Assembly (NCBI RefSeq): GCF_003334335.1
Contig: NZ_QOWQ01000055.1
Direction: 5' to 3' (one strand)
Source: Escherichia coli
GTDB taxonomy: Bacteria > Pseudomonadota > Gammaproteobacteria > Enterobacterales > Enterobacteriaceae
Length of the DNA: 19,253 nt
In this document: positions 1,267-1,566 of the stretch, one piece after another
How the letters are laid out: every line of letters begins with the position of its first letter
Numbering within the stretch: position 1 is the first letter of the stretch
The notes under the pieces: generated by a model
What the model was told of the DNA's origin: nothing
What the model saw: only the letters and a program-made list of their open reading frames with translations
Databases searched by the model: none
Translations under genes and position numbers: made by a program

Positions 1267-1312
1267 GCGAATTATTTAGTACAAAAAATCAGCGTTACGT
1301 GATCTTTCCCTG
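1267..1312. repeat. Imperfect direct repeat, copy 1 (gcgaattatttagtacaaaaaatcagcgttacgtgatctttccctg)
   Basis: Aligned by eye to 1519-1566; roughly 85% identical over ~46 bp. Confidence 0.7.
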
Positions 1313-1518
1313 CCCCTGCGCTCACTACCATGGCTCTTTACCACAGCAGCCGGGGTTGTTTGGGACCGACTTCCGACAGCAGATCCCGGTGGGCCTGCCA
1401 CCATCTCTTCACAAGCTTATGCTTATTACATGCAAAACGTCCCGTTTTGCATCTTTGTGCCTACGGCACACCGGTGATCTTTCCCTGATGAGGGATATAT
1501 TAACTATTGAACATTAGC

Positions 1519-1566
1519 GCGAATTATTTAGTGCAAAAAATCAGCATCACGTGATGCTTTTCCTGC
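1519..1566. repeat. Imperfect direct repeat, copy 2, containing a 16-bp perfect palindrome agcatcacgtgatgct (1543-1558)
   Basis: Direct repeat of 1267-1312; the palindrome was verified by reverse-complementing. Confidence 0.7.
1532..1560 (-). terminator. Probable rho-independent terminator of the rhs-immunity transcript
   Basis: On the minus strand the 16-bp palindrome (1543-1558) is followed by a U-run (plus-strand A-run 1535-1540), about 40 nt downstream of the immunity gene stop at 1599. Confidence 0.45.

Follow-up and report, generated by a model that had tools for sequence, protein, structure and literature searches.

The three copies of a short motif, TTTCCCTG, that lie between an ISAs1-family transposase gene and the presumed immunity gene of an rhs locus in the 19,253-nt stretch of Escherichia coli DNA analyzed here (the window) are very probably the left termini of three ISAs1-family elements, all in the same orientation and stacked downstream of the rhs toxin–immunity pair, with a history of insertion and deletion that is laid out below. 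No piece of the array needs a function of its own. The original prediction had suggested either remnants of IS ends or operator sites, and it is the former that holds, since the motif, to judge from alignments of many copies, is the left terminal inverted repeat of the adjoining ISAs1-family element. Read along the minus strand, the immunity gene is followed by a stub (1566–1488), a tip (1487–1472), an intron fragment (1471–1313), and then a left end and its transposase gene (from 1312 downward). The features of the region are the following:

1–77, no strand assigned: end of the IS256-like element IS1414, lying in the 3' end of the ISAs1 transposase gene (context, outside the repeat)
78–1168, minus strand: ISAs1-family (H-rpt/ISEc1-like) transposase gene, its 3' end broken by IS1414 (NCBIfam NF033564, transpos_ISAs1, 406.9 bits)
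1169–1312, minus strand: non-coding left end of the resident ISAs1 element, complete according to the alignment of independent IS copies
1313–1471, minus strand: first 159 nt of the group II intron E.c.I9 (class D), part of domain I, assigned by Rfam and by identity with a full-length intron
1472–1487, minus strand: 16-nt ISAs1 left tip CAGGGAAAGATCACCG, the 5' exon of the intron (copy 2), assigned by the junction of tip and GTGTG in relatives
1488–1566, minus strand: stub, 79 nt long, of an ISAs1 left end that is older and has diverged; it holds copy 3 and is cut at ...CCCTCAT by the tip at 1487
1533–1558, minus strand: intrinsic-terminator-like hairpin AGCATCACGTGATGCT (1558–1543) followed by GATTTTTTGC, from a pattern scan and RNA folding
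1599–1991, minus strand: 130-aa ORF, presumed immunity gene, immediately downstream of the C-terminal toxin region of Rhs, with an overlap
1969–3951, minus strand: C-terminal half of an Rhs core protein with a variable toxin tip (NF041261, RHS_core profile positions 747–1261, and TIGR03696)
3984–6041, minus strand: N-terminal half of the Rhs core protein, in another frame than 1969–3951 (RHS_core profile positions 49–721)

The gene at 78–1168 is annotated as "ISAs1 family transposase" in identical genomes. Its reading frame, which starts at 1168, has no stop, and its C-terminus departs from that of normal copies after ...RKAAM, where foreign sequence takes over; identical matches to positions 1–77 carry the RefSeq label "IS256-like element IS1414 family transposase". 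On the other side of the motifs, the 130-aa ORF is annotated as "hypothetical protein" in identical genomes and matches no family among the NCBIfam profiles; its immunity role is presumed from its position. Strain 720632 has one intact rhs gene of 4245 nt, as against two ORFs in different frames in the window, so that the rhs gene at 1969–6041 is probably a pseudogene here. In annotated identical genomes the locus is flanked by yafV and tRNA-Asp/dnaQ, and in some strains a full type VI secretion cluster adjoins it. Within the window, a weak TssA-like ORF (84 bits, against a curated cut-off of 230) and an Hcp/TssD gene adjoin rhs on the plus strand at 6530–8475, and three further ORFs (8507–9433, 9446–9922, and 10065–10847) matched no NCBIfam family.

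The left terminal inverted repeat of the ISAs1 element

What do the three copies have in common? A repeat search of the window found an exact 14-mer, GTGATCTTTCCCTG, at 1299–1312 and 1474–1487, with no third exact site anywhere in the window; with up to three mismatches there were four matches versus 1.3 expected, the other two being unrelated. A diverged copy of the motif lies inside 1519–1566. Copy 1 had been correctly placed at 1294–1312, where the sequence reads gttacgtgatctttccctg, and so had copy 3 at 1543–1565, with its perfect 16-bp palindrome (agcatcacgtgatgct) at 1543–1558. For copy 2, predicted at 1468–1487, the string was right but the start was off by one, since the 21-nt string spans 1467–1487. 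Similarly, the direct repeats of about 46 bp described around copies 1 and 3 are real, and include a 37-nt ungapped repeat with 92% identity (1267–1303 versus 1519–1555), but their length was set too short: the gapped likeness, between 1233–1312 and 1488–1566, has 64 matches over the 79-nt stub (~81% identity).

Direct repeats within 270 bp of each other might have been produced by a local duplication or by faulty assembly, and an assembly duplication had been named beforehand as part of what could overturn the prediction. Of 5426 complete E. coli genomes, however, 869 cover at least 80% of the 471-nt stretch from 1150 to 1620; REL606 carries it without a difference, and the 30 matches listed are all 100% identical over the whole query. 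The arrangement is thus carried by 869 independent complete genomes, REL606 among them, the stub and the resident left end are far from identical, and the sequences between the copies differ, all of which makes either origin vanishingly improbable and excludes it as a practical objection.

Copy 1 is the tip (1298–1312; CAGGGAAAGATCACG on the minus strand), which is the left terminal inverted repeat, 144 nt upstream of the transposase ATG. Loci of several kinds were aligned upstream of the transposase (rhsE/ydcC, O-antigen clusters, and other rhs or PAAR loci), and at least eight independent ISAs1 copies proved alike up to ...GATCTTTCCCTG and unrelated directly beyond. At the opposite end of the element, the copies are alike up to ...TCGTAATCTTGCCCTG and then unrelated; in other words, homology among independent copies stops exactly at CAGGG/CCCTG at both ends. 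The right end of the window's own copy is interrupted by IS1414, and the right inverted repeat (IRR) was seen in other loci (here given L numbers): an inverted match, CAGGGCAAGATTACG, stands at the other end of the copies in L002, L004, L008, L009, and L010, and variants of it occur in other copies, such as CAGGGAAAGATTACG in L003. The terminal inverted repeat sequences were derived from alignments of copies alone. A target duplication of 10 bp, CCTTATATAG, lies on either side of the L008 copy; none was seen in L003, L009, or L010, where the copies are probably recombinant. Together, the limits of homology, the inverted match at the other end, and the duplication in L008 identify TTTCCCTG as the outer edge of the left terminal inverted repeat of H-rpt/ISEc1, the IS of the Rhs loci. 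A comparison with other ISAs1/H-rpt elements and their terminal inverted repeats had been proposed along with the original prediction, and the motif was found at every ISAs1 left end examined.

With H-rpt/ISEc1 the element shares the transposase family (NF033564), terminal inverted repeats starting CAGGG, a size of ~1.29 kb (a 144-nt left end, a 1137-nt gene, and 10 nt past the stop), and its place downstream of the rhs toxin and immunity genes, as well as the 10-bp target duplication found in L008. Copy 1 does not differ from such an element at all, whereas copies 2 and 3 are stumps of 16 and 79 nt, and the tip in copy 3 has diverged (CAGGAAAAGCATCACGTGATGCT) to a perfect palindrome that is absent from the other left ends examined. 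At the same locus in E. coli C (L001, 7843–7882), the ISAs1 right end leaves the consensus after ...TTTCGTA and has no CCCTG terminus. Going by that copy, the resident element has probably lost its right inverted repeat and would be immobile.

The intron fragment and the older stub

Between copies 1 and 2 lies a piece that the original prediction had missed. A permissive Rfam scan (E up to 1) of positions 1–2200 gave a match to RF01999 (group-II-D1D4-2) on the minus strand at 1402–1282 (81.8 bits, E = 2e-16, gathering threshold 36), and no RNA family other than this intron domain. The last helix in this match extends into the IS tip and is not genuine; where relatives retain a longer piece of the intron, a proper helix fills that part of the model. 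The intron 5' end reads GTGTG (1471–1467), which fits 5' GUGYG, and the intron stops short with nt 159, at 1313, next to the first letters (CAGGG) of the IS tip. Domains V/VI and the intron-encoded reverse transcriptase are absent from the window, and for this reason 1313–1471 is a dead intron fragment, not an intron. Copy 2 is only a 16-nt tip because the 5' end of the intron follows at 1471. The same junction of tip and GTGTG is also found in L002, L003, L004, L005, and L006.

The fragment is 100% identical to nt 1–159 of a full-length intron in L006, as seen from hit H128 in strain M217, which has a 1150–1620 stretch identical to that of the window. The L006 intron is 1886 nt long, with domains V/VI (RF00029, 62.8 bits) and a frameshifted ltrA. 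It sits 15 nt inside an ISAs1 left end, the order being CAGGGAAAGATCATC, then GTGTG and the rest of the intron, then TAACGCTGCTTTTTTGTACTAAATAATTCGC, and then the transposase gene, so that the IS resumes past the intron 3' end. It matches at 96% the full-length E.c.I9 of ATCC 8739, which is named in a published survey (Leclercq & Cordaux 2012, PMC3522654). According to that survey, the "Rhs IS (= ISEc1-5)" is a target for both E.c.I2 and E.c.I9, each at a position of its own, and positions 242510–242668 of REL606 are an "E.c.I9-tr2, fragment of 159 bp" (PMC3522654, Tables S2/S3). Window positions 1471–1313 are identical to this stretch of REL606, and E.c.I9-tr2 has thus been published for REL606/BL21; like the window fragment, it lies in the Rhs region, inserted in the "Rhs IS" (PMC3522654). 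The junctions of E.c.I9-tr2 are not described there; in the present comparison, the 5' exon consists of the outer 15–16 nt of the IS, and on its 3' side the fragment breaks off against the tip of a further IS. A literature search on H-rpt together with group II introns found nothing in the collection searched.

Copy 3 lies at the tip of the remains of an older element. In a distant BLAST search with 1488–1600, the first 78–82 nt matched many ISAs1 left ends at ~80% identity, and most of the left ends matched directly adjoin transposase genes. In the alignment, the stub is colinear with ISAs1 left ends from the tip to ...CCCTCAT, and its inner half resembles the IS subtype of L007 and L009. In strain STO_Bone1B (L010), the same 3' flank of the immunity gene and the same palindromic tip join a whole ISAs1 directly, which is the un-nested state. 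The likeness to left ends and the state of L010 both identify 1566–1488 as the outer 79 nt of an earlier ISAs1 that was interrupted when the element with its tip at 1487 arrived. The comparisons thus establish, at the level of sequence, what each piece of the array is, and that earlier states exist in L010 and L006.

The immunity gene, the 79-nt stub, the 16-nt tip, and the intron fragment all recur at a different chromosomal Rhs locus, rhsE/ydcC, in strain OkiPb01705 (L004, 4000–4330). The inner junction differs from that of the window: it lies at intron nt 147 and has an extra 18-nt tip. To judge from its presence at this other locus, the module must have passed from one Rhs locus to another, presumably through recombination.

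Proposed order of events and the crowding of element ends

How did three left ends come to be stacked in this way? We infer that an ISAs1 first inserted just past the immunity gene, where its first 79 nt would remain as 1566–1488. A second ISAs1, oriented like the first, would have entered it at a depth of 79 nt and would have brought, or later gained, E.c.I9. Presumably, only a 16-nt tip (1487–1472) stands before the intron because the homing site of E.c.I9 lies ~15 nt from the outer edge of the ISAs1 left end. Intron nt 159 would next have come to adjoin the left end of a third ISAs1, and recombination between directly repeated ISs, or IS-mediated adjacent deletion, would then have removed what remained of the intron along with the superfluous IS copies. 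The outcome would be a stub, a tip with an intron fragment, and one whole IS. The tip of the oldest stub would have diverged to a perfect hairpin with a T-run, which now probably ends the rhs–immunity transcript. The second copies of the target duplications of the nested insertions are presumed to have been deleted; as for the right end of this IS, it is interrupted in the window, and in E. coli C it is degenerate.

This kind of process appears to have happened repeatedly, since the junctions between intron and IS tip vary and extra tip stubs occur. Elsewhere, the junction lies at intron nt 43 (L005), 147 (L004), or 193 (L002, corresponding to the 193-bp fragment of PMC3522654). Bare ISAs1 left tips of 13, 18, and 19 nt stand directly before another left tip on the minus strand of L002 (4188), L004 (4000), and L006 (4193), respectively, an indication that resident ends have been entered more than once. 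The full-length intron is present in 84 of the 5426 complete E. coli genomes, and 5' fragments of E.c.I9 end at nt 43, 147, 159, 193, 460, 589, 757, or 862, while 3' fragments are rare. Incomplete reverse transcription was rejected on general grounds as the source of the fragments, since it would leave 3' rather than 5' fragments; target-primed reverse transcription begins at the intron 3' end. An intermediate at this locus, with the copy 3 stub and a full-length intron, was sought with a chimeric query (copy 3 stub, tip, and intron nt 1–559), and none of the 5426 genomes covers at least 80% of it. The locus of PS10-3 (L013) was set aside as a candidate for the ancestral state, having a different context and another partial intron. 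In L010, the IS shares the palindromic tip, yet its inner part belongs to a different subtype, which shows that recombination between IS copies has scrambled the record. At L006, there is also a 47-bp unit (1179–1225) in which a pair of IRR-like ends, CAGGACAAGAGCAT and ATGCTCTTGCCCTG, stand head to head 19 nt apart; it could be a miniature form of an ISAs1-like element, or an end of one that has been rearranged.

Would random nesting followed by deletion be enough to produce such a stack, or does ISAs1 prefer to integrate into, or just inside, the left ends of resident copies? The crowding is suggestive of such a preference, for IS tips are stacked 13, 18, 19, and 79 nt inside other tips, and four of the eight distinct end points of E.c.I9 5' fragments fall within the first 193 of 1886 nt (p ~0.006, a rough binomial estimate that assumes uniform, independent events; junctions with ISAs1 tips were read for the short intron fragments only). 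There are precedents in IS30 and IS911, which target their own inverted repeats and likewise yield ends stacked just inside other ends. On the other hand, in ISAs1 survivorship after recombination can mimic such stacking: short stubs would persist while longer partial duplications would recombine away. The shared orientation is a matter of ascertainment, since an inverted nesting cannot collapse to a stub, and the loci were chosen because they contain the fragment. ISAs1 is not known, from experiment or from statistics, to target its own ends, and we consider such a preference unlikely, favoring nesting and deletion as described above. If true, however, it might explain the tandem H-rpt arrays at Rhs loci.

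Palindromes, the hairpin, and what the array records

The original prediction had treated the motif as a common unit of a palindrome plus TTTCCCTG. Only the TTTCCCTG/GATCTTTCCCTG part is in fact homologous among the three copies, and the palindromes are not. Copy 1 has no palindrome. In copy 2, caccggtg consists of IS sequence (...caccg) abutting the 5' end of the intron (gtgtg), and because it spans this exon/intron junction the palindrome is fortuitous. Copy 3 reads ttttcctg, with a 1-nt insertion, and its 16-mer is diverged subterminal IS sequence. A single template switch (quasipalindrome correction) was rejected as the origin of the copy 3 palindrome, as inspection of the alignment shows both arms to differ from the consensus (by an insertion and by two substitutions, respectively).

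The minus-strand pattern scan found in copy 3 a 6-bp stem with a 4-nt loop and GATTTTTT. The hairpin, which lies ~40 nt past the stop of the putative immunity ORF, has a predicted folding energy of -14.4 kcal/mol (z = -3.57). As in Rho-independent (intrinsic) terminators, a GC-containing hairpin is followed by a T-run at this short distance from a stop codon, and an upstream A-tract gives copy 3 a bidirectional look; it differs from them in being a predicted structure, IS-derived, with a stem of just 6–8 bp and three G–C pairs. It is plausible, going by these folds, that copy 3 acts as a terminator of the rhs–immunity transcript. When left ends were folded side by side, copy 3 gave -9.9 and copy 1 gave -7.2 kcal/mol, while five other variants gave -1.3 to -2.5 kcal/mol. 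Because the other left ends fold so weakly, the predicted hairpin would be a peculiarity of the diverged tip of copy 3 and no feature of the family; for the same reason, the idea that hairpin and T-run form a general shield against read-through at ISAs1 left ends was rejected.

It was the threefold repetition of the motif within 270 bp that had suggested operators; on this reading, the sites would be bound by a regulator (or by the transposase as a repressor) of the rhs–immunity module or of the transposase gene. The perfect 16-bp palindrome of copy 3 fits this idea, as does the fact that transposases bind their terminal repeats. However, the same palindrome is not repeated: there is none in copy 1, that of copy 2 is an artefact of the exon/intron junction, and that of copy 3 is a different 16-mer. 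Furthermore, no more than a stump of 16 nt is left of copy 2, no comparable palindrome or hairpin is present at other ISAs1 left ends (with the weak folds just given), and descent from IS termini accounts for everything that the copies have in common. Operators are therefore a highly improbable explanation. A separate possibility, though an unlikely one, is that self-end targeting, with intron-bearing resident copies among the targets, yielded the stacked tips and the excess of very short E.c.I9 5' fragments, or else that selection turned the oldest tip into a perfect hairpin that now acts as a terminator for the orphaned rhs toxin–immunity module.

Every component of the array is of a kind already known: the terminus of ISAs1/H-rpt, a catalogued fragment of E.c.I9, and a terminator-like hairpin. 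The value of the finding lies mainly in annotation, in that what looks like a regular motif array in an rhs intergenic region is layered debris of mobile elements. A palindrome, as is also seen here, can come about by chance where two elements join. The layers (two IS stumps, a catalogued intron fragment, and one IS) record an order of events at the locus, and the layered arrangement marks a lineage that makes up ~16% of complete E. coli genomes, B strains included.
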